In this document: positions 3,096 through 25,519 of the stretch, piece after piece | How the letters are laid out: each line of letters starts with the position of its first letter | Numbering within the stretch: the first letter of the stretch is position 1 | Assembly: GCA_014905635.1 (NCBI GenBank) | Contig: CM026547.1 | Span: forward strand, 3,596,001-3,660,000 | Origin: Scenedesmus sp. PABB004 | Lineage: Eukaryota | DNA: 64,000 nt | Direction: 5' to 3' | Position numbers and translations under genes: made by a program | The notes under the pieces: generated by a model | Database searches by the model: none | Told to the model about the DNA's origin: nothing | Seen by the model: the letters and a program-made list of their open reading frames with translations, nothing else

Positions 3096-3557
3096 CCGCT
3101 CCTAGGCGGCTCCTGCGCGCTCCGGCGCCGGCCCTACCATTACCCAGGGATTGGTTTCAAGCTCCTAATTGGCGAATGGCGGGCGACAATCGGGGCGGCA
3201 GCGGGACAGCAGGGCGCGCCAGCGGTTTGGGACCCGCCCGACGGATAAAAACCGCCCCTCACTCCTACACGGCCGCTCACAGCTCCGCGTTCGAGCGCGA
3301 CAACCGCCGCGCGCGCCGGCGCCGGCCGCCGCCAGCGCGGCAGCGGCAGCGGCACCGCTGCTGGTGACGCTGCGGCGGTGCGACACTGCTGGCTGCTGCG
3401 CTGCGCCCGCGGCTGGCGCTGGCCCGGAAATCACTGCCCGTCCGAGCGCCGCCCGCTGCTCGCGTGTGCGGCGCGCGCGCGCCGGCAGCACCGCCCGGCG
3501 TGTTCCCGGTGTGTTCACCTCCTGCCCGCCCCCTCCCTCCCCCCAGGCCCCTCCTCC

Positions 3558-4257
3558 CTATTGCTGCGCCGCGCCGTGCTGCGCCTTAATCGCCTCGATC
3601 ATCTGCAGGCGGCGGGCGGGCCTGCGTCAGCAGCAGGCGGCGCGGGGACGCCCGTGCCGCGCGCGGCACGCTGCACGGCGCGGGGCGCACCTCCTTGACC
3701 GTGGGCGGGTGCTCCACCTCGGGCGTGCGCGAGCGCTCGATCAGCGCGCGCACCGCAAACGGCACCGTCATGCCTGCGCGGGCGCGGCACCAGGCGCGGC
3801 GGCGACGTCGGGCAGCGGCGGGGTCGGGCAGCGCCGGCGCGCCGGCGGCGCGGCGCTCAGCTGCGCCCGCTGGCGCGCTGGCCCGCGCCCGCCGCACCCG
3901 CCACCGTCCAGTAGAAGGTCCACATGAGAATGGGCTCCCTGCGGCGGCGGCGGCGCGCGGCGCGGTCGGAGGTCGCCGCGCAGCTTGGGCGGCGCCGCCG
4001 GCGCGCGGACACGCGCCCGCGGGGGCTGCCGGCCCTCCCGCGCGTCCCCGGCGGGCCGGGCGTCCCAGGACGCGCAGCTCCCGCTGCCCCCGACGCCCGG
4101 AGCGCCTGATCTGCGGCTGCAGATTGGTCCGGGCCCCGGCGCCTCGCCCCCCGCTCGCCGGGTGCGCGGCGGCCCCGCCGGAGCGTCCGCAGCGCGGAGG
4201 GGGCGCGGGACGCGCAGGGGCTGACCTGAACGTCCACTTTGCGAAGAAGCCGACCAT
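3558..4257 (-). CDS. Small 4-exon single-TM protein (about 66 aa), probable mitochondrial complex I subunit NDUFA3/B9-like
   Basis: Spliced translation MVGFFAKWTFR-EPILMWTFYWTVAG-MTVPFAVRALIERSRTPEVEHPPTVKE-MIEAIKAQHGAAQQ*, with GT-AG introns in consistent phase. The W..R/K-E-P-hydrophobic helix pattern resembles NDUFA3/NI9M. Confidence 0.6.
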
Positions 4258-4562
4258 TTTGCCCCCTGCGCCCGCTCCTCGTTGCCTGTTGCCTGCTGCG
4301 CCGCCCAGGCGCCGCGACCCCGGCCGCCGAGCGCTGCCGGGCCCGGGCGCGGGCGGTGCTGCTGCCGGCTGCGCCGCGGCCGCCGCCGCTCCCCCTCCTG
4401 CTGCGGGCGCGGTCTCGGCTGGCGGACGCGTGCGGCCGGGCCGTGCGTGCGGCTGGGTGAACGAACGGCGGTGTGTGGCGGACCTGCGGCACCGCTCGCT
4501 GCGCGGCTCGCTGCGGCCCGCCGGCAGGGCTCAGCGGCGTTGCACCGCGAGGCCTGCGCCGC

Positions 4563-5895
4563 TCACGCGGCGTCCGGCACGACCACCTGCACCTTGATGC
4601 AGCCCCCGCCGCCGCCCGCGAGCGCCATCGCCTCGACGCCGCGCGCGAGCGGGACCTCGTGGCTGACCATGCGCGCCAGCAGCGCGCGCAGCGGCGCGCT
4701 CCCCGACATCAGCTCCAGCGCCGCGCCCATGGGCCCGCAGCGCGAGCCGACCAGCGTCTTTTCGTTGACCACGATGTCATTGGCGAGCTCCGCCCACGTC
4801 GGCGCGTCGCGCGCCGCGGAGGGCAGCGCTGACACCGTCGTCTCCACGGCGGCGGCCGCGGGCAGCGGGCAGCGGGCGGGAGCATCAGCAACTCAGCGCC
4901 TGCGCCGGACCTCTCGCCGCGCAGCGCAGCGCCGCCCGACCCGCACCTTCAGCACGAGCGTGCCGAGCGGCCGCGTGAGCGCGAGCGCGGCGCGCACGCC
5001 CGCCGCGGAGCCTGCGCGCCGGTGGCGCCGGCATGCCGGCGGGCGGGGTGGCCGCGTGGGCGGCCAGCCGCGCGCGCGGCGCGGGGCGCGGCGCGGCCCG
5101 GCGCGGCTGGCGGCGCACCCGACGCCTCGACGACGAGCTCAAACCCGCCTGCGTGCTCCTCAAGGGCACCGGCACCCTCGCCGACCACGACGCGCGCGGC
5201 GGTGCCCGGCACGAGCGCGAGCTTGTCGGCGTGGCGCCCAAAGTGCGTGACGCGCCCGGGCGCGCGGTCGGCGAGCACCGCCGCGATGAGCAGCCCCAGC
5301 CGGCCGTCGCCGAGCACCGCCACCCGCCCCTGCTCCAGCAGCAGCCCCTGCTCCACGATGCGGCAGGCCGCCGCGAGCGGCTCGCAGAACGCGGCCTCCG
5401 CGTCGCTGAGGCAGTCCGGCACGACCAGCAGGTTGCGCGCCGGCAGGGTGCAGAACTCGGCGAGGCAGCCGTGGCGGCCGATGATGCCGAGGACGGACCT
5501 GCGCGCGCGGGCCGCAGCACAGCGCGCGTGATGGTGTGCGAACGAGCTCGCCCGGTCCGCGCGCGCCGCCGCGCCGCGCACCGGCCGGGGGCGTGGTTGC
5601 GCGTGAACACCGCGTCGGCGCATGCGAAGCCGCCGTCGTTGCAGTTGATCTCGCCGACCACCCGCTGCCCGACGAGCCCCGGTCGCGAAGCGCACTCGAC
5701 GACGATGCCGACGAACTCGTGCCCCAGCACGCCGTCGTAGCCGGGCACGTAGCCGCGCGTGATCTCCAGGTCTGTAGAGCAGACGCCCGCCCGCTTCACG
5801 CGCACGAGCGCCTCGCCCTCGCCGGGCACCGGGCGGGGCTGGTCATGCACGAGCCGCAGCGAGTCGGTCGCCGCGGTGTACACCAGCGCCTGCAT
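4563..5895 (-). CDS. Zinc-dependent medium-chain dehydrogenase/reductase (threonine/alcohol dehydrogenase-like); spliced
   Basis: GVCSTD, GVLGHEFVG, GQRVVGEIN, AAFCEPLA, VAVLGDGRLG (Rossmann), VVEASG, LVGSRCGP motifs. Confidence 0.9.
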
Positions 5896-6354
5896 CTGGC
5901 CCAGCGTCTGCACCCGCGGCGGAGCTACCCCACGTCGCAGCTGCGGCCGCTGCGCGGCGGGCGGCGGGCGCGCGGTGGGCGCGCGGCGGGGCACCGCGCT
6001 GCGGGGCACCGCCGCTGCTCGCCGCCGCCGGTGCGCCGGTGCCGCTGGCCTGGAGCAGCGCCCTCGCGCCGGTCGCGACTGAGAGCTCAGAGGCAGCGTG
6101 ATGGCCGGGGCGAAAGCGACTGGGATGCCCCAGGAGGCGGCGACGGCCACACCAGCGCAGGAGCTGAACTGAACCCCTGCCGCGGTGCGCTTGGGTCGCC
6201 TCTGGTCTCAGAGGTGGTCCGCACGCACGCACACGCACACGCACACGCACGCACCCTCGCGCCAGTCGCCGCTGTCGCTGCCGCTGCGCCCGCCCGCCGC
6301 TGCCGCTGCGCCCGCCGCTGCCGCCGCCGCCGCGCGAGCACGGCTGCCGCTGCG

Positions 6355-7523
6355 ATGCCCTTCGCGCCCAGCAGGGCGGGACAGCGGATCCACGCTCCAG
6401 CAGGGCGGGATCCACGCTCCAGCAGGGCGGGACAGAGGATCCACCGGGCCAGCGGGCACGCTGCGGTCGCCCCGCGCCGCCCGGGCGCACGCAGCGCGCG
6501 GCTCGCGGCGGGCGGCGGGCCGCCGCAGGGCCTGGCCGCGCCGCCGGCGTCGCCCGCCGAGAGCAGCCTGCCGCCTGGCAAGGCCTGGCTCGCGGGCGTC
6601 GGCCCCGGCGGCTGGGACCACGTGACGCTCAAGGTCGCCCGCCTGATCAGCCAGGCGGACGCGCTCGTGTACGACGACCTCGGCGCGGCGGAGCTCTGCG
6701 CCGCCGCGCCCCCGTGGGCGGAGGCGCACTTCGTCGGCAAGCGCGGCGGGCAGGCAGGGTCGACCAAGCAGCCCGAGATCGACGCGCTGCTGGTGCGGCT
6801 CTGCGCGGCGGGCAAGCGCGTCGTGCGGCTGAAGGGCGGGTGCCCCTCCACGTTCTCCCGCGTGCGGAGCGAGGCGGCGGCGCTCGCGGCGGCGGGATGC
6901 GCGTTCGAACTCGTGCCCGGCGTGAGCACCGCGACGTCCGCGCCGGTGCTTGCAGGTGCGCTGGTGCAGGCGGCGCGGGACGCCGCGCGGCCGCGGCCGG
7001 TTTGACGGTCTGCCGTCTCAAACGGCGCCGCCGCCACCGCCGCGCCGCCGCGCAGGGCTGCCGCTGACTGACGCGGCGCTCGCCGGGGCGTACGCCGTGG
7101 TGAGCGGGCACGACGCGGCGGGCGTCGACTGGGCGGCGTTTGCCCGCATCCCGACCCTCGTCGTGCTCATGGGCGGCCGCGCGCTGCCGGCGATTGTGCA
7201 GCAGCTGCTGGCCACGGGCTGGGCGCAGGACACGCCGGTGAGCCCAGCGCAGCGCACCTTTTCAGCCGGCTGCGCGGCGCGCGGCACCGAGCGCGCAGAG
7301 CTGCGCGTGACTCGAGCCCGCGCCCGCCCGCGCCGGCCGCCACGCGCAGGCGGCGCTGGTCAAGGCTGCCGGCACGCCGGCACAGCGCTGCTGGTTCAGC
7401 ACGCTGGCGCGCCTGGAGCGCGACACCGCGCCGGGCGCGCCGCTGTCGCCGTGCGTCATCGTCGTGGGCAAGGTCGCGGGCCTTCCTGCGGCGTGGGCAG
7501 CGGCGGCGCCGCCGCCCGGCTGA
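6355..7523 (+). CDS. Uroporphyrinogen-III C-methyltransferase (SUMT/UPM1/CobA)-like protein, plastid-targeted; 3 exons
   Basis: GVGPGG..VTLK..LISQADALVYDDL, FVGKRGG, QPEIDALLV, VVRLKGG, FELVPGVS, VVSGHD, TLVVLMG, SPCVIVVGKV. Introns about 6957-7055 and 7238-7349. Confidence 0.85.
6368..6444 (+). repeat. Imperfect three-unit tandem repeat (29/22/26 nt) inside the predicted transit peptide
   Basis: Three copies of CCAGCAGGGCGGGA(CAGNGGA)TCCAC starting at 6368, 6397 and 6419. Confidence 0.9.
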
Positions 7524-7636
7524 CCGGCGCGAGCTGCGCGTGCTTACACGCGCCCCGTTCGCGGCTGCGTTGATGCCGTAACCGCCGCTCCGCCGGCGCG
7601 CGCGCGAGGCCAGGGGCCGGTGTCTGCCGGGGCTGC

Positions 7637-9221
7637 TCAGTCGTCAAAGAGCAGCACGCGCGGCCCCACGCCGTCGCCGCCCGCGCCGAGCGCGGCCGCG
7701 ACGCCGGGCGTGGGCCGCAGCGCGGGCGTGGCGAGCATGCCGATGATGTCGCTCAGCGGCGTGCCGGGCGCGCCGCGCGCGCCGCACAGCGCGAGCAGCT
7801 CCCCCGCGTCGATGTCGTCGTCGCTGCTCTCCGCGCCGCACGCGCCGTCGCCGCGGCCGTCGCCGTCGTCGCTGCCGCCGCGCGCGCCCGCCACGAGGCC
7901 CGCCGTCGGGCTGCCGGGCTGCGGCGCCCCGTCGCCGCCGCCCTGGGCCGCCAGCATGAGCCGTATGACCTGCTGCTCGGGGCTGGGCGGCGGCGCGGCG
8001 CCGAGGCGCGACTGCTGCGCGCCGCGGGGCGTCTGGCCCTCCAGCATCAGCTCGATCACGGCGCCCACGGGGCTGCCCGGCGGCGCGCCGGCGCCGCGGC
8101 CGGGCGTCGGCCGCGGCCGGCCGCCCAGGCCCAGCTGGCTCAGCGGCGTCGCCAGCGCGTCGCCGCCGGCCTCGCAAGCGCCGCTGCCGGCGGCGGCGGG
8201 GCTGCTGCCGACCGGCGTCGGCGCGGGCGCGCGCGGCGGCGTGCGGGGCGGCGCGCGGGCGGCGGCGGCGCCGCCGCACGCGAGCGCCGCGCGCGCCGTG
8301 GCGGCCGCGACCTCGTGCGCGCCCACGGTCGTGGCCGCCTCGCTGCCGCCGTCGTCGCCGTCGTCGCCGTCCTCGCTGCCCGCGTCCGCGGGGCCGAGGT
8401 CAAACAGCGGCCGGCTGCGCGGCTGCGCGCTCGCGGGCGACACCGCCGAGCGCGGCAGCCCCGCAGCCACGGTGCTCATGGGCGTGCCGGCCGCGGGGGA
8501 CGGCGCCGGCGCGCGCGGCGGCGTCGCGCCGGCCGGGCTGCGGCGCGGCGTCCACTTGGCGCTGCCCGTCGCCGCCAGCCAGGCCTGGAAGTGCGCGCTG
8601 CCGCCTGCGGCGCGGGCGGCGCGCGCGCGCGCGTGGGCGCCAAGCGCCCGGGGCGCCGGCGCCGCCGCGCCCTGCTCCGGCCCAGCCCCGCCGCGGCGCG
8701 GCGCCGCACCCGAGCGGTCAGGCTGCTCGCGCCCCTCGACCGTCGGCGGCGGCGTGTTCTCGTCGCCCGGCCGCGCGCTGGCCATGGACGCCGTGGGCGG
8801 CGTCTTCTGCCCCGCGTAGGGGCTGGTGCACATCACCCAATCGCTGAACCTGCGCGGCACAGCGGTCGGCGCGGGCCGCGCGGAGGGCGAGAGGGCGAGA
8901 AGGGCCCGCCGCCGGGCGGGCGGCGCTGGCGCACCGCTTGCCGCTGTCGGCGGGCGTGGCGTTGAGGCCGCCGGGGGTGCGCCGGAACAGCAGCGGGCTG
9001 TGCTGCATGGCGTTGTCGACGGCGCCGCCCTGCGGCGTGCGCGCCCTGCGCACGAGCGCGCGCCGGCAGCGGTCGGCGGCGAGCGCGCCGGCGCAGCGGC
9101 GGCGGGCCGCGGCGGCGCCGGCGGCCGCCCCAGCGCACCCGTTGCCCAGCTTGCTGTCGGGCGTGCCCGGGCCGCCGTGCGAGGCCTGCAGGGGGCTGCC
9201 GAAGCAGAAGGCGTCCGCCAT
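7637..9221 (-). CDS. Hypothetical low-complexity protein rich in S/T-P motifs; 2 exons
   Basis: MADAFCFGSP...MQHSPLLFRRTPGG..SGK|RFSDWVMCTSP...PRVLLFDD*. Intron about 8934-8850. TGTAA signal at 7544-7548 downstream. Confidence 0.6.
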
Positions 9222-9577
9222 CCCGCGTTGCGAGCGCGCTCGCTGCCCAGAAGGCCGGGGTCGGGCGCTGTGGCCCGTGGGAACGCGAGCAACGCGGCTG
9301 CAGCGGGACGGCGGGCCCTCCTGGCGCGGCCAGCGAATTTGAGCGCCCAGGTCTCGCCGTTCATGGACCCTGCGGCGCCGTGGCGACCGCGATCACCGCC
9401 GTCGCACCACACGCCACACGGCACACGCAGCTGCGCGGCGCCCTCTCCAGCGCAGCCCGCGGGGCCAGCCATCACCGCACCCAAGGGCGGCGCCCGCGCC
9501 AGGCCGGCCCCTGTCCTCCCCTTCTTTCGCTCCCACGCAGCAGCAGCCATGAGCCTGCTCGGTTCCGGATCCGTCCA

Positions 9578-11234
9578 CATGGCGGGCCGCATCGCGCGGG
9601 TGCGGCGGCGCGGCGCGCGAGCAGCGCCGCCGTTCGCGGCCCGCCCGCGCGCCGCGGCGCCCGATCCGGCCGGCCCCGGCTGACGCCTCCCCGTTCCCGC
9701 CCGTCCCGCGCCCGCAGCCGCTGGCGGGCGGCGGCGGCAGGCCCGGCGGCAGCGAGCCGCGCTGCCAAAAGTGCCTGCAGGCGGGGCACTGGACCTACGA
9801 GTGCAAGGGCCAGCCGGCCTACCAGTCGCGCCCCTCCGCCAGCCAGCAGCTCATGAACCCGGTGCGCTGCCCGGCCGCGCGCTGCGCGGGCGCCGCCGCC
9901 GCTGCCGCGCGCCGCCGTGCCGCGCTCGCCGATCCCCCGCCCCGTCCCGCCCCGCGCCCGCCGCAGGCCAAGCGCAAGTACCTGGACGCCTCGGAGGTGC
10001 CGGAGTGGATGCGCTTCAGCAAGAAGGAGCTGGAGGCGCGGCAGCGCGCCGAGGCCGAGGAGCGGCGCAAGGCGCGCAAGAAGAAGCACAAGCCCGCGCC
10101 GTCCTCGTCGTCCAGCAGCAGCAGCAGCAGCTCCTCGTCAGACTCTGGCAGCACCACCAGCTCCAGCACGACCTCGTCGGGCTCGTCCTCCAGCTCCGGC
10201 AGCAGCGGCAGCAGCGGCAGCAGCAGCAGCAGCAGCGACAGCAGCAGCAGCAGCGACAGCGGGCGCCGGCGCAAGTCGCCGCCGCGCAAGCGCTCCAAGC
10301 GCGCCGGCTCGGGGGACAAGCGCGGCGCCGCGCGGGACCGCAGCGCGTCGCCGCCGCCGCCGCCGCGCGGCGGCGGCAGCGCCGAGGACGTTGAGGAGCG
10401 CGCGCCCGCCGACGGTGACGCGCGGCAGCGCAGCCCGCCCGGCAGCGCCGGCCGCCGGCCTGACGGGCGGGCGGACGGGCGGGCCGCCGCGGCGGCGGCC
10501 GACCCCGCCGGCGGCGGCAAGCTGCGCCCCGAGCAGCAGGCGCCCGAGGCTCGCGGCGGCGGCCGGGACGACAGCCGCGAGCGGCGCGGCGGGCGCGGCC
10601 GCAGCCGCAGCGCCAGCCCGGGCAGGTGGCGCGGCAGCGACGACGAGGGCGACCGCCGCCCCACGCTGGGCGCGCGCCACGCGCGCGAGCGCCTGGCCGC
10701 CCCGCCGGGCGAGCGCCGGCGCCACGTGCGCTCCGAGGTCGCCGACCGCGGCGGAGACGTGGCGCGGGGCGGGCCGCGCGGCCGCTCGCCGCAGCGCCGC
10801 GGCGGCGCCGGGCGCAGCCCCGACCGCAGCCGGGAGCGCGGCGGCGGCGCGCGCGGGCGCGCCCGCGCTCGCCGCCGCGCGGACGGTCGGGCTCTCCGCC
10901 GCGCGGCCGGCCCCGCTCGCCGCGCGGTGCGCCGCCCCGCTCGCCTGCCAGGCGCGGCGGCGAGCGGCGCCGCAGCCCCTCGCCCCGCGCCGGCGAGCGG
11001 CGGGCGGAGCGCGGCGGGCGCGAGCCGGAGGCGCGTGCGGGGCGCAGCCCCGGGCGCAGCGACGGCGGCGACCGCCGCAAGAGCCCCGGCAGCCCCTCTG
11101 GCAGCAGCAGCAGCAGCAGCTCCTCCAGCAGCTCGGGCGGCAGCAGCGACAGCGGGCGGCGGAGCGGCGGCGGCGAGCCCAAGCGCGTGCCGCTGCGCCG
11201 CGGCCGCGCGCGCAGCCCGGCGGCGAGCAGGTAG
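9578..11234 (+). CDS. Zinc-knuckle ZCCHC10-like protein with Ser-rich and RS/RSP-rich tail; spliced, with an apparent frameshift near 10850
   Basis: MAGRIAR|..[40 protein letters not shown].. matches the ZCCHC10-type knuckle. Poly-Ser and RSPP repeats follow. 3' end is uncertain. Confidence 0.75.
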
Positions 11235-11769
11235 TGGGAGGCTCTGGAACTCGCAGGCGGCCTTGCCCTGGTCGCGCGAGGCGGCGCCTGGCGTCGTGCC
11301 CGGCCGACGCCGCCGCGCCGCGCAGCGCGCCGCCGCCGGCCGCGCCCGGCGCGGTGGCGCGTACGATGACGCCGGCCACGGCCGCCTGGGGGCGCGCGCG
11401 CAGCCGCGGCGAGCGGCGGCCCGGCCTTCAAGCGCCCTGCGCCGCGGCGGCCGGGACCTCGCTTTGACCATGCTCTGTGCGCGCCCCCGTCGCCCTCGCC
11501 CGCCAGAGTCGGCTCTCGTCCCGTCGCCAGGCGCCCGCGCACGCCACGACCGCGCCGCTCGCTGCCGCTGCCCCCCTGGCACCAGCCCTTCGTCGCGCAC
11601 CGGCGCCGGCCGAGTACGCGCGCGCCGGCGCCGTCGCCCGGGCCGATCGACGCCGCTCGCCGCACGGCCGCGGGCGGGCTGGGCGCGCGCGCGCGCGCCG
11701 ACCGGGTGCCCGGCCCTCTCAGAGCGCGCGCAGGCCGCGCCAGGCCGCGTGGACGGCACCGGTGTCGCG

Positions 11770-16117: not shown

Positions 16118-19100
16118 TCACGACAGCTCGCTCGCCGCCTCGCGGCGCGCAGCGAGCACGCGCTCCTCCTCGTCCTGCCCCTCCCCGTGCTGCTGCAGGT
16201 CGCGCTCAGCCGGCAGCGCCGCCGCCGCCGCCGCGGCCGCCGCCGCGGCCGCGGCGTCGAAGCTCTCGACCGCGCCGTCGTCCTCCAGCACCTCGAGCTG
16301 CCCCGCCGGCAGCTCGCCGGGCGCGGGGGGCTTCACCAGCCCCGCCGCGGCGCGCGGCAGCAGGCCCAGCCCGGCCTCGCCGCCAACAGCCCCAAACCCG
16401 CGCGCCGGCGGCTCGCCGGGCTCGTGGTAGCGCCCCGTGGCGCGGTCGTAGACGAGCACGCACTGGCCCTTGCAGCCGCTCGTCTTGTTGCGCACCTTCT
16501 CCACGATCACCTCCACCTCATACTCCACCTGCGCCGCGGCCGCCGCGGCGGCAGCGGCCGCGGCGCCGCCGTCCGCGGCGCCGTCGCCGCCGCCATCGGC
16601 GGCGGGCCCGGGCGGCGGCGGCGGCGCGTCGTCGCCGGCCGCGCCGCCGCCGCCGCCGCGCGACTTGCGGGCCTTGCCGGCGCCAGCGCCTGCACCGCCC
16701 GCGCCGCCGCCGGCGCCGGCGGCGGCGGCGCGCTGCTGCAGCTCCTTGAGCCGGCTCCAGTCGCGGTGCACGACGATGCCGTTGTCGGCCTTGTTCATGA
16801 AGTTGGCGCCGCCGCTGATGTCCTGCAGGCCGGGGCGCTGCCCCTGCCACGCGCCGCCCATCTGGCGCGGGTGCGCGACGAGCCACACGTGCACGCGCTG
16901 CTCGCGCGCGAAGCGGCGCAGCCGGCCCATGAGCTCGTTCACGTGCTCGTGCTCCTTCAGCGCCGCGGGGCGCGTCGGGTCGAGCTCGTTGTAGGGGTCG
17001 ACGATGAGCCCGTGGATGCCGTGCCTGCGCGGCCGGCGGCGGCGGCCAGCGCCCGGCGGTGGTCAGCGCCCGGCGGTGGTCAGCGGCCGAGGCGGCCGGC
17101 GCGCGGGCTGCGCGCGGGCGGCACGCGGGCGGTGGCCGCGCAGGAGGCGGGGGCAGGGGCGCGGCGCCGCAAGACGCACTGAATAACCGCGGCCTTGGCC
17201 TTGTCGAGCACCCACGCGACGCTGGGCATGCGGTCCTCGCCGCTCGCAATGACCACAAAGTGCTCGCACAGCACCGTGTACGCCGCCTGCAGCTCCTGCG
17301 CGCGCGCCGCGCGCAAGCGCCGCGCAGCACACGTCGGCCGCCGCGCCGCGCCGACTGGCTGCCTCATGGCGCTGCCCGGCGCTCCCCACCCCCCTCCCCT
17401 CCCTTCCCCCCGCCGCACCTCCTCGGTCATGCGCGGCACGTCCGCGGCGTAGCCCGCGGTCAGCAGCGGGCGGCCCGCGATCTTCTCGACCAGCTGGCGC
17501 GCGTGGTCGCGCGGGCGCTTCTCCATGCTGCACACCGCAAAGCGCCAGCCCTGGCTCAGCGCGAGGTTGACCGCGAGCGCGTCGAGCCACTCGCTCTTGC
17601 CGCTGTTGGGCACGCCCGTCACGAGCGTGAGCTCGCCGGGCGCGACCTGCGGCGCGCGGCGCGCGGCGCGCGGCGGGCAGCGCTCGCGCGGCGCGCCGCG
17701 CGGCGGCCGCCTCTGGCGCCCCGCTGGGCGGCCGTTGCGCCGCGCCGCGCCGCGCTGCCGCGACCCGCCCGCGTGCGTGGTCGGCGCACCTTGTAGTACC
17801 GGTCGAGCGCGGGCCAGCCGGTCGACACGGCGAGGCTGTCGGTGCTGGGCGTCTCCCAGTAGGCGAGCAGCTCGCCGGCAAAGTCGGCAAAGCGCTCCAG
17901 CCCCGCGATGGGCCACACGTACGCCGAGCTCACCGCGCCCAGCGCCGCGCCCGGCCCCAGCAGCGACGCGACGAGGCCGAGGCTCCAGCCCGCGGCCGGG
18001 CGCGCGGCGAGCGCGTCGACGAGCGCCTGGCTCGGCGGCGCGCCGCCCGCCGCCGCCAGCTCCGCGCCCGGGTGGCTGCTGGGCCAGGCGGCGTGGCGGC
18101 ACGCGACCTCGCCCAGCAGCGCGGCGAGCTCGTCGCCCACCGCGTCGCCGACGGGGCCCTGGTCCAGCGCCAGCACCGCCGCCTCGGCCGCCGGCAGCAG
18201 CAGGCTCAGCCCCGTCACGGGCGCGGCCGCCACGTCGGCGGCGATCAGCAGCCCCTCGGCCGGCGGCTCGCCGCCGGTCGCAGCCACGGCGGCCGCCGCC
18301 GCGCCGCGCCGCGTGGCGCCGATCTCGTGCTGCCGCCGGCGGCTGGCGAGCTCTGCGGTCAGGCCCGCCAGGCGCAGCCGCGGGTCCTCGCTGTGCGCGC
18401 CGCCTGGGCCCGCGGCGAACGGCCGCGCCGGCGCCTGGCCCCCCTGCTCCCGCTGCCACAGCAGCTGCTGCAGCTGCTCTGCCGGCGCCGGCTGCGCCTC
18501 GCCCGGCTGCTGCTGCCCATCCGACGACGGCGATGGCGACGCGCCCTGCTGCTCCTGCGCCGGGGCGACCCAGGGCGCCCAGTATGGCGCCTGCAGCGGC
18601 ACCGCGATCGCAGGCACGCCCTCGGCCGCCAGCATGAGCGCGTCGAGCTCGCAGCTGACAAATACCACGAGGCTTGCGTCCTGCGGGCACGCGCGCGGGG
18701 CGTCGGCGCCGGCGCTGGCGCCTCAGCCGCCGCCGCGCAGGCCTGAGGTGCAGCGCCGCACCTGCAGCTGCGCCTCGCTCATGTATGGCTGCCGCGCCGC
18801 GAGCGCGAGCCAGCTGCCCGCGAGGCGGCCGTCCTGGAGGTGCAGGTAGCGCACGTCGGCGAGCTTGCCGCCGCGCCAGTACGGCAGCGCCAGCACCTCG
18901 ACCTGCGCCGTGGCAGCGGCAGCAGCGGCGTCCGCGCGTGGGCGGCAGCCCCCGCGCGCGGCGCGCCGTGCCGCGCCTCTGCAGCGGCGCCGCGCGGCCC
19001 GGCCGCCCGGCGCCGGCGCACATGCTTGCCCAGCAGGGGGTGCTGCACGGCCGCCATGCCCGCGCCCGCCGCCTGCAGCGCGCTCTCGGGGACGCCCACG

Positions 19101-19919
19101 CCCGCTGCCCACGCGACGGCGGCGGCCGACGGCGGGTCACTGGGCGCCACGAGCGCGGCGGCGGTGCGGTTGCTCCGAAAGGCGTTGCGCAGCGCCATGT
19201 CGGGCTCCCGGCCGTACGCGGCCGCGCCCTGCTCGGCGCCGGCCTGCTGCGCCGGCGCGCGCGCCGCCTGGGCCGCCGCCGGCTTGCGCTGCTTGGGCGC
19301 CGGGCCGCGCCGCGCCGCCGCGCCGCCGTCGGCCGCCGCCGCCTTTGTCGCGGCGCGCTTCTTCTTGGCCGCCGCCGGCGGCTCGTCGTCGTGGGCCGCC
19401 GGCGACTGCGAGCTGGAGCGCCGCGACGAGGCGCGTGGGCGCGGCTTGCTCGGCCGCGGCGGCGCGACCGCAGCGGCCGCGCCGTTGGCCGCGCCGTTGG
19501 TGCTGCCGCCGGCGCCGTTGCCGTCGGCGGCCGCGGCGGCGGCCGGCAGCGCCGCGTCCGTGCTCGCCTCGCGCGGCGCCTGCGCCGCCGACGGCGCCGC
19601 ATCCGCCGCCGCCGCGGCCGCGCAGACGCCCCGGCGGCAGAGCTGCTGCTGCCGCGCAGACGCCAGCACGACAGCGGCCGGGCGCGCCGCCGCCAGCCAC
19701 CTGCGCGCGGGCGCTGCGGTGAGCGCCGGGCGCCCCCGGCGCGCCTGGACGAGCGAGGCGCCCCCGCCGCCGCGCACCCCACCTGGCGGCGCTGGCCGGC
19801 AGCTGCTGCGCGCCGGCGCCACCGGCGCCGCCGCCGACCGCGCCCGCGCGCGGCGCCGCGCCCGCGAGCAGCCCCCGCATCGCGGCCGCTGCCAGGGCGG
19901 TCAGCTGCATCGCACGCAT
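16118..19919 (-). CDS. Twinkle-family SF4 DNA helicase with degenerate primase region (no zinc finger, TOPRIM acidic residues lost); about 7 exons, organellar
   Basis: Helicase motifs intact: VSTGWPALD, PGELTLVTGVPNSGKSEW, CSMEK, LIVDPYNELD, HVWLVAHPRQ, DISGGANFMNKADNG, KVRNK. Primase-equivalent segments read FVSCELD, LALDQG and lack KDAN. Confidence 0.9.
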
Positions 19920-20461
19920 GGCGGTGCGGGGCGGCAGGGGCGGCGGCCTGCCATGGGCGGCGCGGCGCTGCGCCGGCGTTCGCAGCGGCGGCGAGTGGGA
20001 CGGCGGCGCGGCGGCGTGCTCTGCGCGGTCGGTGGTGCCGGGCCAGCCGGGTCACGGGGGCAGCACCGAGATCTGCGCCGGGCTGCAGGTTTCGCAAGCG
20101 CCCGCCGCCCGGTCTGCCGGCTGTTCAGGGCCCCCGCGCTGCCGCTCGTCAGCCGCACCGCAACAGGCCTTTTCCGCGCCCGCGTGGGGCCGGGCGTCGC
20201 CGCGCCCGCGCCCGCAGCAGCAGCAGGCCCTGCGCTCCCAGCTGGCTGCCCGCCCGTCCCCTCTCGCTGGCCCACGCGACGGCCTCGGGCCCTGCACACC
20301 CGCCCCGGCGGCGGGCGGGCGATCCCGCAGCCCGGCGCGCCGCTCTCGGCGTTCGCGGCGGCGCGCCCGCCAAGTCGGCGCGCGCGCTCGCCGTGCGGCT
20401 AGGCCGCGCGGGCGCGCGCAAGGAGGCGCCCCAGCCGCGCCGCCACACTCCCGCCAGGGGA

Positions 20462-22900
20462 ATGCAGGCCGCGGCGCTGCGCAGCGGTTGGGCGGCGGCG
20501 GCGCTCCCGAGCGCGCTGCTGCGCCGCCCGCAGCCGCCGCGCCGCGCCGCCGGCGCGCGTGCCGCCGCCGACTCGGCGCTGAGCAACGGCGAGGCGCCGG
20601 AGCAGCCGGCCCCGCCGAGCCGGCGCAGGCTGCGGCGGAGCAGCAGGCGCGACGCGAGCAGCGCCGGCGACGAGCTCGCCCCGCCCCTGGCGCAGCAGGC
20701 GCAGCAGGCACAGCAGACGCAGCAGGCGCAGCAGCAGCAGCCGCCGGGCGACCCGCAGCCCGCGGCGGCACGTCTGCAGCCGCTGCTGCTGCAGCAGCAG
20801 GAGGCGCGGGCGCCGCGCGTGCAGCTGGGCAGCCTGCTGGCGCGCCAGCCGCCGCCGCCGCTGCCGTCAGGCGCTGCCCCTGACGCGCCGCAGCCCGCCG
20901 CCGCAGCCGGCGGCCCGGGGCCGGCCGCGGCCGGGGGCGAGCCGCAGCAGCGGCGGCGCGGCGCGGTGGGCACGGCGCACCGCGCGCGGTCGCGCGCGCT
21001 GCCCGAGGCGGCGCCGGGCGCGGGCGAGCTGGGCCTGCCGCTGACGCTGCGCTACAGCGAGCACCACCAGTGGCAGGAGTGGCGGCAGCAGCAGCGGCAG
21101 ATGCTCGGCCGGGCCAGAGTGCTGGCTGCGCAGCTCGCGGCGGGCGCCCGCACGCAGCCGCCGCCGCACGACGCGGCGGCCAGCAGCGTCGTGGCCGCGG
21201 GCGCGGTGCTGCTGGAGCGCCCGCAGCAGCAGCAGCAGGCGAGCACGCCGCCGGCGCAGGGCGCCGGCGACGCGCCGGCTGACGCCGGCGGCGGCGGCGA
21301 TCAGCGGCGGCGCCTGGCAGCGCGCGGCGACGCGGCGGCAGAGCAGGAGGACGGCGGCGCCGACGCCGTGTTGGCCGCCCTCGAATCCATCCATCCCTTC
21401 CAGATCGAACGCATCAGCGGCATCGGCGACCACGACAGCGGCAGCGGCAACAGCAGCAGCGGCGGCGGCTCGAGCAGCGCCTGCCGCGGCGGCCGCGCCG
21501 CCGCAGCCGGCGACGACGAGGCGGACGAGGGCGCGGTGCTGGCGGAGCTGCAGGACCTGCTGCAAGCGTGGGGCATTGCCCTGCCGCACGCGCACTTTGG
21601 TCAGCAGCGCACTCCCTGCCCGCGCTGCGAGGGCGGCCGCAGCCGTGAGGACTGCTTTGCAGTCAACCTGTCGGCGGACGGCTCGGCGGTGTGGTGCTGC
21701 CACCGCGCCACGTGCGGCTGGAGCGGCGGCGTCACGGCGCCAGCCGCGCGCCAGCGGAGCCGCAGCAGCAGCACCAGCAGCAGCACCAGCAGCAGCACCA
21801 GTGCCGGCGGCAGCGAGGACGGCGGCGGCAACGACGGCGGCGGCGCGGACGCCGTTGCAACGGCGCCCAAGGTGTGCGCGCCTCTCCTGCTGGTCGCTCC
21901 CGCTCCGCTGCGCCCGCCCGCGCCGCGCCCGCGCCCCCGCGCCGAGCGCTCTGCCCCCCCCCCCCCCCGGGCGCGCAGGCGCCGCTCGACACTTCGCGCC
22001 TGCAGCCGCTCGGCCCCGACCTGCTCGCCTGGTTTGCGGGCCGCGGCATCGGGCGCCGCACGCTCGCGCGCAACCGCGTCGCGGCGGAGGAGCGCTTCGT
22101 CCGCGCGCTCGGGCGGCGCGCGGCGCACGCCGCGTTTCCCTTTTACTGGCGCGGCCGCGTCGTCAACGTCAAGTACCGCACCCCGGACAAGCACTTCAGC
22201 CAGAGCCCCGGCGGGCTGCAGGTCTTCTACGGCCTCGACGACATCCAGGTGTGTGTGGGTGTGTGGGTGCGTGGGTGTGAGGGTGTTGAAGGGGGGGGGG
22301 GGCTTGGGGCGCGCGCCGCGCCGCCGCGCGCGAGAGGCCCGCCGCGCGCGCCGCGCCCACGCCCGCGCCCGCGCGCGGCTCGCCGCCCGGGTGCAGGCGG
22401 GCGCGGCGGAGGTGCTGATTGTGGAGGGCGAGCTCGACAAGCTCGCGGTCGAGGAGGCGACGGGCAAGACGGCGGTGCTGAGCGTGCCCGCCGGCGCGGC
22501 CGCGCCGCCCGCGGCGGCGCGCGGCGCGGCGCCGCCGGGCGCGCGCAAGTTTGCGTACGTGCACCGCGCGGCGTCCGCGCTGTCGGGCGTGGGGCGCGTC
22601 GTGCTGGCGCTCGACGGCGACGACGCGGGGCAGCACACGGTGCGCGAGCTCGCGCGCCGCCTCGGCTGGCAGCGCTGCGCGCGGCTCGCGTGGCCCGCGG
22701 CGGGGCGCGCCGGCGCCGCCGCGCTCGCGCGCGTGGCGGCAGCGGCGCGCGCGGCCGGCGTGGCGCTCGACGCCGGCGCGGGGCGGTCCTGCAAGGACGC
22801 CAACGACGTCCTGCTCCGCCTCGGCCCCGCCGGCCTGGCCCTCTACCTCGACCACGCGCCCGAGCCCTGCCCCCCGCCCGACAGCGACGACTGGTGGTGA
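20462..22900 (+). CDS. Twinkle-family primase-only protein (zinc finger + RNAP-basic + TOPRIM, no helicase); 3 exons, organellar
   Basis: CPRCEGG..WCCHRATCGWSG zinc finger; WFAGRGI; FPFYWRGRVVNVKYR; FYGLDDI; LIVEGELDKL; LALDGDDAG; CKDANDVL; stop after DSDDWW. Introns 21872-21978 and 22249-22396. Confidence 0.9.
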   Translation: MQAAALRSGWAAAALPSALLRRPQPPRRAAGARAAADSALSNGEAPEQPAPPSRRRLRRSSRRDASSAGDELAPPLAQQAQQAQQTQQAQQQQPPGDPQPAAARLQPLLLQQQEARAPRVQLGSLLARQPPPPLPSGAAPDAPQPAAAAGGPGPAAAGGEPQQRRRGAVGTAHRARSRALPEAAPGAGELGLPLTLRYSEHHQWQEWRQQQRQMLGRARVLAAQLAAGARTQPPPHDAAASSVVAAGAVLLERPQQQQQASTPPAQGAGDAPADAGGGGDQRRRLAARGDAAAEQEDGGADAVLAALESIHPFQIERISGIGDHDSGSGNSSSGGGSSSACRGGRAAAAGDDEADEGAVLAELQDLLQAWGIALPHAHFGQQRTPCPRCEGGRSREDCFAVNLSADGSAVWCCHRATCGWSGGVTAPAARQRSRSSSTSSSTSSSTSAGGSEDGGGNDGGGADAVATAPKVCAPLLLVAPAPLRPPAPRPRPRAERSAPPPPRARRRRSTLRACSRSAPTCSPGLRAAASGAARSRATASRRRSASSARSGGARRTPRFPFTGAAASSTSSTAPRTSTSARAPAGCRSSTASTTSRCVWVCGCVGVRVLKGGGGLGRAPRRRAREARRARRAHARARARLAARVQAGAAEVLIVEGELDKLAVEEATGKTAVLSVPAGAAAPPAAARGAAPPGARKFAYVHRAASALSGVGRVVLALDGDDAGQHTVRELARRLGWQRCARLAWPAAGRAGAAALARVAAAARAAGVALDAGAGRSCKDANDVLLRLGPAGLALYLDHAPEPCPPPDSDDWW

Positions 22901-23499: not shown

Positions 23500-25519
23500 T
23501 CAGCCGAGCGTGTAGGACTCCTTGTCGAGGTTGATGACCGTCGACTTGGTCTTGCACATGAGCATGAGGCTGTTCTTGATGCCCTGGCTGCCGATGCCGC
23601 TGTCGCGGAAGCCCTGGAAGGGGAAGTGGTCGGGCCCGCGCGCCGGCGCGGCGTTGACCTGCACCGTGCCGGTCTGCATCGCGTCGCTGATGCGCATCGC
23701 GGCGTTGATGTCGCGCGTGAACACGCAGCCCTGCAGCCCCAGGTTGCTCGCGTTGCAGTGCGACACGGCCTCGTCGACGCTCGACACGCGCATGATGGGC
23801 AGCACGGGGCCAAACGGCTCCTCCCACGCGATGCGCATGTCGGGCGTGACGCGGTCGAGCAGCACCGGCGACAGCAGGTTGCCCTCGCGGCGCCACTGCG
23901 TGAGGAACGACGCGCCCTTGGCGCGCGCGTCCTCGACGAGCCCCTGGATGAAGTTGGCGCTGCTCTCGCTCACGACGGGCGTGATGTCGGCGTTGTCCTC
24001 CGGCCGCCCGACCGTGAGCTTGGCCACGCCTGCGCGGGGGCGGCGCGCGGGCGGCGCGCGGCGGGGGTCGGCCCGGGCCGGCGGCGCGGGCGGGCGGCGT
24101 GCCGGCGCGCCGGGGGGGGGGGGGGGGGCGCCGCGCCGCGCCGCTCCTCGGCGTGCCCCGCGCCGCCGCCGCCGCCGTCGCCGTGGCACCACTGCCGCCG
24201 CTGCCGCCGCGGCGGGCGCACCTGCCGCGACCTTTGCCACGAGCGCGTCGGCGACGCTGTCCATGACGAGCACGACCTTGACCGCGGTGCAGCGCTGCCC
24301 GCTGTAGCTGAAGCCGCCCTTGACGATCGCGCTCGCCGCGAGGTCGAGGTCGGCGTCGGCGCACACGATGCACGCGTCCTTGCCGCCGAGCTCCATCTGC
24401 AGCGGCACCATGCCCGCCTTCTTGCTGATCGCGATGCCCGTGTCGCCGCCGGTGAAGGAGATGCAGTTGACCGCGGGGTGGGTGGTGAGGAAGTCGCCGA
24501 TCTCGCTGCCCTTGCCCGTCACGAGGTTGACCACGCCGTCGGGCAGCCCCGCGGCGGCGAAGCAGGCCATCATGTGCACGCCCGCGACGACGCCCTGGCT
24601 CGGCGGCTTGAGCACGACCGCGTTGCCCGCCATGAGCGCGGGCGCGAGCTTGGAGACGGCGAGGTTGACGGGGTAGTTGAACGGCGGGATCGCGAGCACA
24701 ACGCCGAGCGGGACCTTGGACACGAGGCAGAGCTTGTTGCGCGCCTGGCCCGGGAAGCTGTCGCTGGAGAGCAGCTGGCCCTCGCCGAGCGCGCGGAGGC
24801 CCTCCTCCGCGGTGTAGTCGATGAGGTCGGCGCTGCGCAGCACCTCGGTCGCCGCGTCCTTGGCGGGCTTGGCGATCTCGCGCACGAGGCAGTCGGCCAT
24901 GGGCCCCGCGTGCTCGCGCATGAGCGCCGCGACCTTGTGCAGGTACTCGGCGCGCTTCCACAGCGGCGTCTTGGCCCACCCCAGCTGCGCGGCCTTGGCG
25001 GCCGCAAACACCGCGTTCACCTCATCCTGCGTGCACGCTGCGCGCCCGGGCGGCGGCGCGGCGCGGCGCGGGTGGGCGCGGGCGCCGCTGCCGCCGCCCA
25101 ATTGGCGCCGCCGGGGCCTGCGCGCAGCGGCGGGCCGCGCCGCGCCGCGCCGGCGGGCCGGCATGCATGCGCGCTGCGCCGCGCGCGGCGGCAGCGCGGC
25201 GCGCGGGCGCCGCCGCCGCCGCGCGCCGCCGGCACGGCGCGCTGCTGCTGCCGCCGGCGCACTGGCGGGCCGGGCTCGGCGGGCGTGCACACGCGGCGCG
25301 CGCGCGCGGCCGCCGCCCGCGTGGGCGTGGGCAGCGCCATCTGCTGCTGCTGCCGCCTGGCGCGCGCTCACCCTGGACCGCAAAGTCCTTCTGCAGCGTC
25401 GACGGGTTGGTCACCGGCACTGTCTTGCCGCTGGAGGACTCCAGCCACTGCCCATTGCAGAACCATTTGTAGGCGCCGCTGCCCGCCTTGATGCAGGCGT
25501 AAAAGTCGGCGCTGGCCAT
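23500..25519 (-). CDS. GAPN: NADP-dependent non-phosphorylating glyceraldehyde-3-phosphate dehydrogenase (ALDH11); 3 exons
   Basis: IPPFNYPVNLAVSK, ISFTGGDTG, LQMELGGKDA, GFSYSGQRCTAVK, EEPFGPV, APARGPDHFPFQG, DSGIGSQG. Confidence 0.96.

Follow-up and report, generated by a model that had tools for sequence, protein, structure and literature searches.

A head-to-head pair of Twinkle-family genes, one for a primase-dead helicase and one for a helicase-less primase, in the green alga Scenedesmus sp. PABB004

In most eukaryotes, the replication of organellar DNA centers on Twinkle. Within a 64,000-nucleotide stretch of the Scenedesmus sp. PABB004 genome (GenBank assembly GCA_014905635.1, contig CM026547.1, positions 3,596,001 to 3,660,000 of the forward strand; hereafter designated the window, with positions counted from its first letter), we found two Twinkle-family genes that lie head to head and have lost opposite halves of the enzyme. 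The gene on the minus strand (16118–19919) codes for an SF4 helicase whose primase-like N-terminal domain is inactivated (the primase-dead helicase form, designated B), and that on the plus strand (20462–22900) for a stand-alone zinc-finger and RNA-polymerase/TOPRIM primase (the helicase-less primase form, designated C); the full fused Twinkle is designated A. The pair is a real and conserved variant of known Twinkle themes that has apparently gone undescribed so far. We consider it rather probable that B and C are functional, conserved, divergent nuclear genes of Twinkle descent, and that B unwinds organellar DNA while a primase-competent paralogue provides the primers in trans. As had been proposed in a preliminary description made from the sequence alone, the two paralogues diverge from a spacer of about 540 bp (19919/20462); the predicted ATG codons are separated by 542 bp (19920–20461), a segment that is a candidate for a shared bidirectional promoter.

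The gene models were built by hand from the sequence and checked by script, both start codons and the first exon and first intron of B being predictions. All eight introns (six in B and two in C) have the form GTG...CAG, and each of them restores the reading frame. The G+C content at third codon positions (GC3) was 0.89–0.99 and exceeded that at second positions (GC2) in every exon of B and C, the periodicity of C beginning at 20462, and codon periodicity of this type, judged by GC3 versus GC2, was absent from the introns and from the 542-bp spacer. Moreover, a transcriptome-derived protein of Enallax costatus (P0006) spans four of the six exon junctions of B with no indels.

Gene B consists of seven exons on the minus strand and encodes 1032 residues, with the stop codon at 16120–16118. 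Exon 1 (19783–19919), which carries the predicted start and is followed by the predicted intron 19782–19701, encodes an Ala/Arg-rich N-terminus that lacks acidic residues and looks, by eye, like a transit peptide. Exon 2 (19022–19700) is of low complexity up to the onset of the primase-like domain (~19207) and encodes no Cys4 zinc finger. The N-terminal subdomain of the primase-like domain follows in exon 3 (18762–18902), where LADVRYL (18837–18860) stands for the canonical VNVKYR, and the degenerate TOPRIM subdomain and the linker in exon 4 (17790–18680), where VFVSCELD (18636–18665) replaces IVEGExD, LDQG replaces DxD, and WSLG replaces KDAN. The helicase domain begins in exon 5 (17419–17646) with motif H1 (Walker A, GVPNSGKS, 17587–17634) and H1a, continues from H1a to H2 in exon 6 (17180–17295), which ends in phase 2 at a junction that is free of indels in the Enallax costatus protein, and is completed in exon 7 (16118–17024) by motifs H2–H4 (DPYNELD, VAHPRQ, DISGGANF, and KVRNKT), beyond which a low-complexity insert leads to the C-terminal tail and the stop.

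To read out the state of each active site, both window proteins were aligned with T7 gp4 and 17 relatives, and the columns of known gp4 residues were inspected. In B, which aligns collinearly with 19 relatives, the helicase residues K318, S319, E343, and H465 (T7 numbering) are all retained, as are the other helicase blocks. In T7 gp4, E157, D207, D209, and D237 are the acidic metal-binding residues of the TOPRIM domain. At the corresponding and neighboring columns, B carries R and L in place of K122 and R124, Ser in place of both E157 and D237, and Gly in place of D209, with D207 kept. No cluster of Cys residues was found upstream of the primase-like domain in the B model, where the Cys4 zinc-finger columns of the alignment are gapped; P0013 is the only B row with residues in these columns, and its match is due to chance. 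E157 and D209 are missing from every one of the six B rows, and D237 from five of them. The closest named relatives of B, judged over the Walker A exon, come from Scenedesmus sp. NREL 46B-D3 (85% identical) and Raphidocelis subcapitata (81%). When the helicase domains of 29 rows were placed in a tree, the B rows (window B, Scenedesmus P0002, Enallax P0006, Raphidocelis P0005, and two proteins from the Joint Genome Institute) formed a clade of six with a support of 100/99, and the clade includes proteins having precomputed DnaB_C and AAA_25 matches. Exon 7 of window B taken alone scored 15.3 bits against DnaB_C, under the cut-off of 27.

The N-terminal part of B was recognized by a profile constructed from 64 canonical primase domains, which gave 283.6 bits for C, 70.5 bits for T7 gp4, and 36.3 bits for the B N-terminus; none of the 260 shuffled controls occurred among the 40 best domain rows listed, which reached down to a protein at 21.8 bits. 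Judged from these scores, the B N-terminus is a recognizable, strongly diverged primase homologue. A Pfam search with exon 4 of B found no family at E ≤ 0.1, and phmmer searches with single exons against solved structures yielded only low-complexity chance matches (E > 0.1). Exon 4 also encodes a B-specific helical insert (DPRLRLAGL...). An AlphaFold2 model of exon 4 (mean predicted local distance difference test score, 70.9) was compared by VIA-align with the top chains from Foldseek: T7 gp4 (1q57_A, residues 149–265) ranked first with a Z-score of 10.5 and a root-mean-square deviation (rmsd) of 2.2 Å over 98 residues, and human Twinkle (7t8c) ranked second with a Z-score of 9.8 and an rmsd of 3.0 Å over 114 residues.

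Selection on the two domains of B was estimated as the ratio of nonsynonymous to synonymous substitution rates (dN/dS). Between window B and its orthologue at the metagenomic locus L002, dN/dS was 0.33–0.42 for the primase-like domain, as against 0.18 for the helicase; between the metagenomic loci L003 and L004 (dS ~0.47), it was 0.48 in the dead primase domain of B and 0.17 in the helicase. The active primase region of the A genes gave 0.35. Thus, the relaxed selection (dN/dS ~1) that the preliminary description had named as a possible sign against it is not seen, the dead primase domain staying at 0.33–0.48. From a dN/dS below 0.5 in the dead domain, together with the TOPRIM fold of the model, we conclude that the primase-like domain of B is probably retained as a folded, constrained, and non-catalytic module.

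Gene C consists of three exons on the plus strand and encodes 727 residues, with the stop codon at 22898–22900. Exon 1 (20462–21871) encodes an Ala/Arg-rich N-terminus, a long low-complexity extension, and the zinc-binding domain (CPRC, 21614–21637, ... CCHRATC). Exon 2 (21979–22248) encodes the N-terminal subdomain of the RNA polymerase domain with FPFY...VVNVKYR (22165–22188) and is 52% identical to Scenedesmus P0122. Exon 3 (22397–22900) encodes the TOPRIM subdomain with VLIVEGELD (22412–22438), LALDGDDAG (22604–22630), the clade-specific insert WPAAGRAGAAALARVAAAARAAG..., and CKDANDV (22787–22810), after which come the first linker motif and the stop. By comparison with T7 gp4, C keeps the Cys cluster (CPRC...CCHRATC), K122, R124, and K128, E157, D207 and D209, and K236-D237-A-N, and the motifs VKYR, EGELD, DGD, and KDAND are all present. 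Three Pfam families exceeded their cut-offs in exon 3: Toprim_4 (32.4 bits), Toprim_2 (28.4 bits), and Toprim (26.8 bits). The stop codon lies 12 codons past the motif at which the linker starts (APEP) and ~30 codons past KDAND. A tblastn search of the 64-kb window with four fused Twinkles revealed no helicase exons for C on the plus strand, all helicase-like sequence being confined to 16403–17721 on the minus strand.

These results agree with the preliminary description in every motif reading. It had credited B with all SF4 helicase motifs, here seen in the conserved K318, S319, E343, and H465, and had reported the missing zinc finger, the change of KYR to RYL, VSCE and DQG at the TOPRIM positions, and the loss of KDAN; for C it had listed the zinc finger, KYR, VEGELD, DGD, and KDAND as intact with a stop at the primase/linker boundary, just as in the T7 gp4 alignment. 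Splicing of the plus-strand gene into helicase exons, which it had considered as a counter-indication, finds no plus-strand helicase sequence to join within the 64 kb. The reciprocal losses that it described are also real and conserved, as the clades of B (100/99) and C (100/100) demonstrate.

A homologue search with the last exon of C was swamped by low-complexity words (1 match, 8000 candidates). A profile search with the C primase over 1.84 billion representatives retrieved short proteins that have a common insert before KDAND and end just past the catalytic domain. Window C, Scenedesmus P0122, and proteins from this search constitute a clade of eight with a support of 100/100 in a primase tree of 30 rows (100/97 with seven rows). 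EGExD, DxD, and KDAND are kept in all eight, and the other seven proteins also stop after the catalytic domain. Over 52 rows, E163, G164, E165, D247, D249, and K307–N310 (P0122 numbering) are nearly invariant. Window C itself ends in an acidic-aromatic tail, DSDDWW (22880–22897, plus strand), which is not kept in the other seven proteins of the clade, these ending around A-P-x-P-F. The tail is reminiscent of the acidic, aromatic-tipped tails of T7 gp4, gp2.5, and bacterial SSB.

The B and C forms are conserved clades in Sphaeropleales-like algae and not the outcome of a one-off decay. The B and C proteins of Scenedesmus sp. NREL 46B-D3 are numbered consecutively (KAF6262532.1 and KAF6262531.1, respectively) and are encoded on a single contig of 596,042 bp, and the adjacency of B and C is therefore conserved. 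When metagenome contigs were scanned with the B alignment, 79 loci emerged, namely 74 one-strand fused Twinkles, two cut at the contig end, and three of B type (L002, L003, and L004). At L004, an intronless B (7991–11641, plus strand) stands head to head with an intronless complete Twinkle (3385–7947, minus strand) having a zinc finger, an intact TOPRIM, and a helicase; L003 shows the same B/A head-to-head arrangement as far as its contig extends, and L017 carries another complete A-type gene. Thus, the primase-competent paralogue that stands head to head with B takes two forms, C in the window and a full A at L004 and L003. When the spacers of the window and L004 were compared for a common promoter motif, they shared only an 11–12-mer, which is not above chance. 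The Twinkle paralogues on these contigs (L004:3385–11641, L003:1–4711, and L017:3–3221; 74–77% GC) are single open reading frames of 1520, 1216, 1136, and at least 1073 codons. Window B, by comparison, has six introns and window C two, so the contigs would stem from a relative that is much poorer in introns, at least as far as these genes go.

Expression in relatives is documented for both forms. For B, the evidence is the Enallax costatus protein P0006, which comes from a transcriptome. For C, it is the expression table in supplementary file 2 of a multi-omics paper on Scenedesmus (PMC7955037), a figure legend of which mentions fragments per kilobase of transcript per million mapped reads (FPKM); in this table, the C gene of Scenedesmus sp. 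NREL 46B-D3 (gene 1635883) rises ~4- to 13-fold at the 8–18 h time points, depending on the control series.

A third paralogue was found in Scenedesmus sp. NREL 46B-D3 on another contig (399,318 bp). This protein (P0141; KAF6258971.1) has the canonical motifs FPYY...VNVKYR, IIVEGEMD, and DSD, and its annotated C-terminus turns to nonsense before KDAN. In the primase tree it falls outside the C clade, nearest to the A-type proteins of L004 and L017 (L004_A and L017_A) and to P0026 of Monoraphidium neglectum, a fragment in which TOPRIM and helicase are joined. The preliminary description had read the locus as a clean subfunctionalization into a two-subunit primosome, which would require B and C to be duplicates of each other and to make up the entire system; in view of the third gene, the fused Monoraphidium fragment, and the A/B pairs at L004 and L003, this reading is not supported as it stands. 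It had also mentioned a third complete Twinkle as a finding that would speak against it, and this was borne out in part: a third gene with intact primase motifs is transcribed in the nearest relative, Scenedesmus sp. NREL 46B-D3, though no helicase part is visible in its annotated model. We read the locus as one of the arrangements that a family of three paralogues can take, and not as a pair that has cleanly replaced one fused Twinkle. Related algae probably have a third, more complete copy besides the pair, and B and C together are probably not the sole primosome of these algae.

The primase tree also bears on how often such proteins arose. Land-plant rows (a set not containing At1g30660) form their own clade with a support of 100/100 apart from C, and two further algal proteins, P0129 and P0135, constitute a second primase-only group that is a weak sister to the C clade (78/99). 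These two lack the insert of the C clade and end in ...ESLV; one of them is named ‘ribonuclease M5’ by its source, presumably from the TOPRIM domain. Primase-only derivatives of Twinkle thus appear to have had more than one origin among green plants. Three further proteins of land-plant-like type (P0124, P0126, and P0136) contain two tandem primase modules and end after the primase domain, being either gene-model fusions of Twinky-like neighbors or real tandem duplications. In the helicase-domain tree, B, the A forms, and a degenerate copy of Volvox (P0039) form a polytomy. Degenerate primase sites are seen in P0039 (Volvox africanus) and in P0019 (Logan), the latter reading D/D at E157/E159 and S/T at D207/D209. 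Chlorophytes may have lost the primase function repeatedly.

The most probable explanation of the locus may be put as follows. B and C would both descend from Twinkle, an organellar primase-helicase resembling phage T7 gp4. B would be a ring helicase with an intact motor that has kept a folded, dead primase module, as in animal Twinkle, and C a self-contained primase that ends where the linker to a helicase would begin, as in Arabidopsis ‘Twinky’. Primers would be supplied to B in trans by C and/or by a complete A-type Twinkle; the primase-competent partner would be C in the window and the full Twinkle A, in the same head-to-head position, in related lineages. The N-termini of both proteins are Ala/Arg-rich, with no acidic residue within the first 78 residues of B or the first 36 of C, and their composition fits organellar presequences. 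Judging from the roles of Twinkle in plants and algae given in passages of PMC4166229 and PMC6843274, B and C may act in the replication of plastid and/or mitochondrial DNA. Beyond the gene structures, the reciprocal motif losses, the conservation of both forms, their adjacency in one relative, and the transcription of orthologues in relatives, all of which the data show, we infer targeting to an organelle, co-regulation through the spacer, and joint action of the two proteins at the replication fork.

Several observations weigh against this explanation. Synonymous sites are close to saturation in the comparison of the window with L002 (dS, 1.0–1.4), Foldseek with the exon-4 model of B returned nothing at E ≤ 0.001 (top match, human Twinkle with E = 0.21), and the alignment that was fed to AlphaFold2 contained canonical Twinkles, which favored a TOPRIM outcome. 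On the side of C, no helicase-binding module is recognizable in the alignment after its catalytic domain. Moreover, in the expression table, the third gene of Scenedesmus sp. NREL 46B-D3 (gene 1059082, P0141) and its C gene (1635883) are both transcribed at a low level and both peak at the 8–18 h time points, with r = 0.87 over 72 samples. Since P0141 has an intact primase and is transcribed in level and phase with C, C is not the sole available primase in that alga.

One alternative supposes that C arose in place, from a full Twinkle head to head with B, by loss of the helicase exons, so that the locus would be a true two-gene replacement and the third Scenedesmus gene something separate, later, or unrelated. 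C indeed occupies the position and orientation relative to B that the complete A has at L004 and L003, DCFA...WCCHR.TCG is found in the zinc-finger regions of both C and L004_A, and an approximately unbiased (AU) test did not reject a clade uniting C, L004_A, and L017_A (p = 0.082). The free tree, however, places C with P0129 and P0135 (78/99) and L004_A and L017_A near the third Scenedesmus gene and the Monoraphidium A protein, and the constrained tree is worse than the free one by 20.6 log-likelihood units. Such an origin is possible, though we think it rather unlikely.

It may also be that B and C are neighbors only through their duplication history and work independently, with an A-type Twinkle running one organelle, B serving, as Twinkle does in animal mitochondria, as a primase-less helicase that uses primers made by an RNA polymerase, and C serving as a primase for repair or restart or for the other organelle. 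This is what one might expect from the third gene with intact primase motifs, which is transcribed in Scenedesmus sp. NREL 46B-D3 according to PMC7955037, from the fused TOPRIM-helicase fragment in Monoraphidium and the complete fused Twinkles at L004 and L017, and from the end of C, which has no known helicase-binding domain; according to a passage of PMC4166229, animal Twinkle also operates without a primase of its own. Against it stand the adjacency of B and C in two species and the head-to-head pairing of B with a primase-competent paralogue at L004 and L003, which suggest that selection or descent keeps the pair as such together; that the two should share a 0.6-Mb contig by chance is, by estimate and not by computation, unlikely. 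We regard independent work of the two proteins as unlikely. That one of the genes is a decaying pseudogene, or that the models are open-frame artefacts of GC-rich DNA, is scarcely credible: although long stop-free frames occur on both strands at ~80% GC and the N-terminal halves of both proteins are of low complexity, all eight introns have consensus ends and restore the frame, the GC3 periodicity is confined to the exons, both forms belong to conserved clades in which the catalytic motifs of C are kept and the dead domain of B has a dN/dS below 0.5, and orthologues are transcribed in relatives.

Supply of primers in trans to B, which we prefer, can also be given a stricter form, in which B, in algae of Sphaeropleales type, is the obligate partner of the primase-competent paralogue standing head to head with it, be it a full Twinkle as in some lineages or C as in this one, the two being co-expressed from the spacer and assembled into a hetero-oligomeric primosome, with the dead domain and helical insert of B docking C. 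We hold this form to be distinctly doubtful. If true, such a docking-platform primosome would be a eukaryotic re-invention of DnaB-DnaG from a fused phage enzyme, with intermediate stages preserved in living lineages.

Comparison with known systems places the pair between several of them. T7 gp4 has the same domain order, C covering its zinc finger and RNA-polymerase/TOPRIM region and B its TOPRIM-like subdomain, linker, and SF4 helicase. Unlike gp4, which is one gene and one polypeptide, the window splits the two activities; the active site of B is mutated, which goes further than a missing zinc finger, and C is without the helicase domain that it would need to enter a ring. T7 itself mixes a primase-competent 63-kDa gp4 with a primase-deficient 56-kDa form that lacks the zinc finger. 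The pair of a ring helicase and a separate zinc-finger/TOPRIM primase also resembles bacterial DnaB and DnaG. DnaG binds DnaB through a dedicated C-terminal domain, whereas nothing follows the catalytic domain of C, and B is a gp4-type SF4 helicase in which a dead primase domain takes the place of the N-terminal domain of DnaB. Human Twinkle is like B in being a helicase that has kept a primase-like domain at its N-terminus in a catalytically inactive state; animals are not known to have a separate Twinkle-derived primase gene. B arose within green algae, and its likeness to the primase loss of animals is presumably convergent. Animal Twinkle is described in a passage of PMC4166229 as having helicase activity only.

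Arabidopsis ‘Twinky’ (At1g30660) is encoded near the Twinkle gene At1g30680. According to passages of PMC6843274 and PMC4166229, it has lost the helicase domain but kept the primase domain, and is the subject of no published work. It shares with C both the primase-only architecture and the location near a Twinkle gene; the partner of Twinky is, however, a bifunctional Twinkle, whereas the neighbor of C is the primase-dead B. The truncations of Twinky and C may be independent, since the land-plant rows form a separate clade (100/100) in a primase tree whose backbone is poorly resolved. For Chlamydomonas reinhardtii, Table 1 of PMC4166229 lists two TWINKLE genes (Cre12.g503150 and Cre12.g514950); the table has no comment on dead or missing domains. 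More than one Twinkle is thus found in other Chlorophycean algae, and Volvox likewise has one copy with intact primase motifs (P0029 and P0031) in addition to the degenerate P0039; unlike B and C, its two copies are not neighbors by locus tag (Vafri_4009 and Vafri_4176). A full-text literature search on the two Chlamydomonas gene names returned PMC4166229 alone, and full-text searches of open-access papers listed none on a pair of primase-dead and primase-only Twinkles, or on a head-to-head arrangement of this kind, in green algae.

Each half of the pair therefore has a precedent, B in the dead primase of animal Twinkle and C in the primase-only Twinky. The fate of the primase half of Twinkle is itself an open matter, this half having been lost in animals, kept in plants, and set apart in Arabidopsis as an unstudied primase-only copy. 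The locus offers a natural separation of function, in which B would have helicase activity only and its conserved neighbor C primase activity only, with a full Twinkle in the neighbor's place in related lineages, and the Twinkle forms of these algae make up a visible evolutionary series. Whether a primase of gp4 type can act in trans, what the retained dead primase domain does, and how a fused phage enzyme comes apart could all be tested in tractable microalgae. For annotation, it matters that these genes are called ‘hypothetical protein’ or are mis-modelled in public algal genomes.

The window as a whole is of extreme composition, with a G+C content of 75–83% in all 2-kb bins. As a consequence, stop-free frames of hundreds of codons run on both strands, so that the length of an open reading frame is uninformative, and the periodicity of GC3 versus GC2 separates real exons well. 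The products of the codon-periodic stretches include an RRM protein, an aldehyde dehydrogenase, and CRAL/TRIO, Puf/CPL, NIP7, LSM, and ARC6-like plastid-division proteins; these are ordinary eukaryotic nuclear proteins. Together with the closest named relatives of the helicase exon, they lead us to read the window as nuclear DNA of a green alga that belongs to Sphaeropleales or stands close to them. The gene next downstream of C, and convergent with it, is that of the aldehyde dehydrogenase (23503–25410, minus strand; Pfam Aldedh, E = 6e-133), in whose frame an Arg/Pro/Ala-rich stretch between the two matched parts resembles an intron read in frame. The presence of a plastid in the organism is confirmed farther along on the same strand (59897–61312) by a gene for an ARC6/PDR-like plastid-division protein, in which Arm_PDR and ARC6 domains are recognized.

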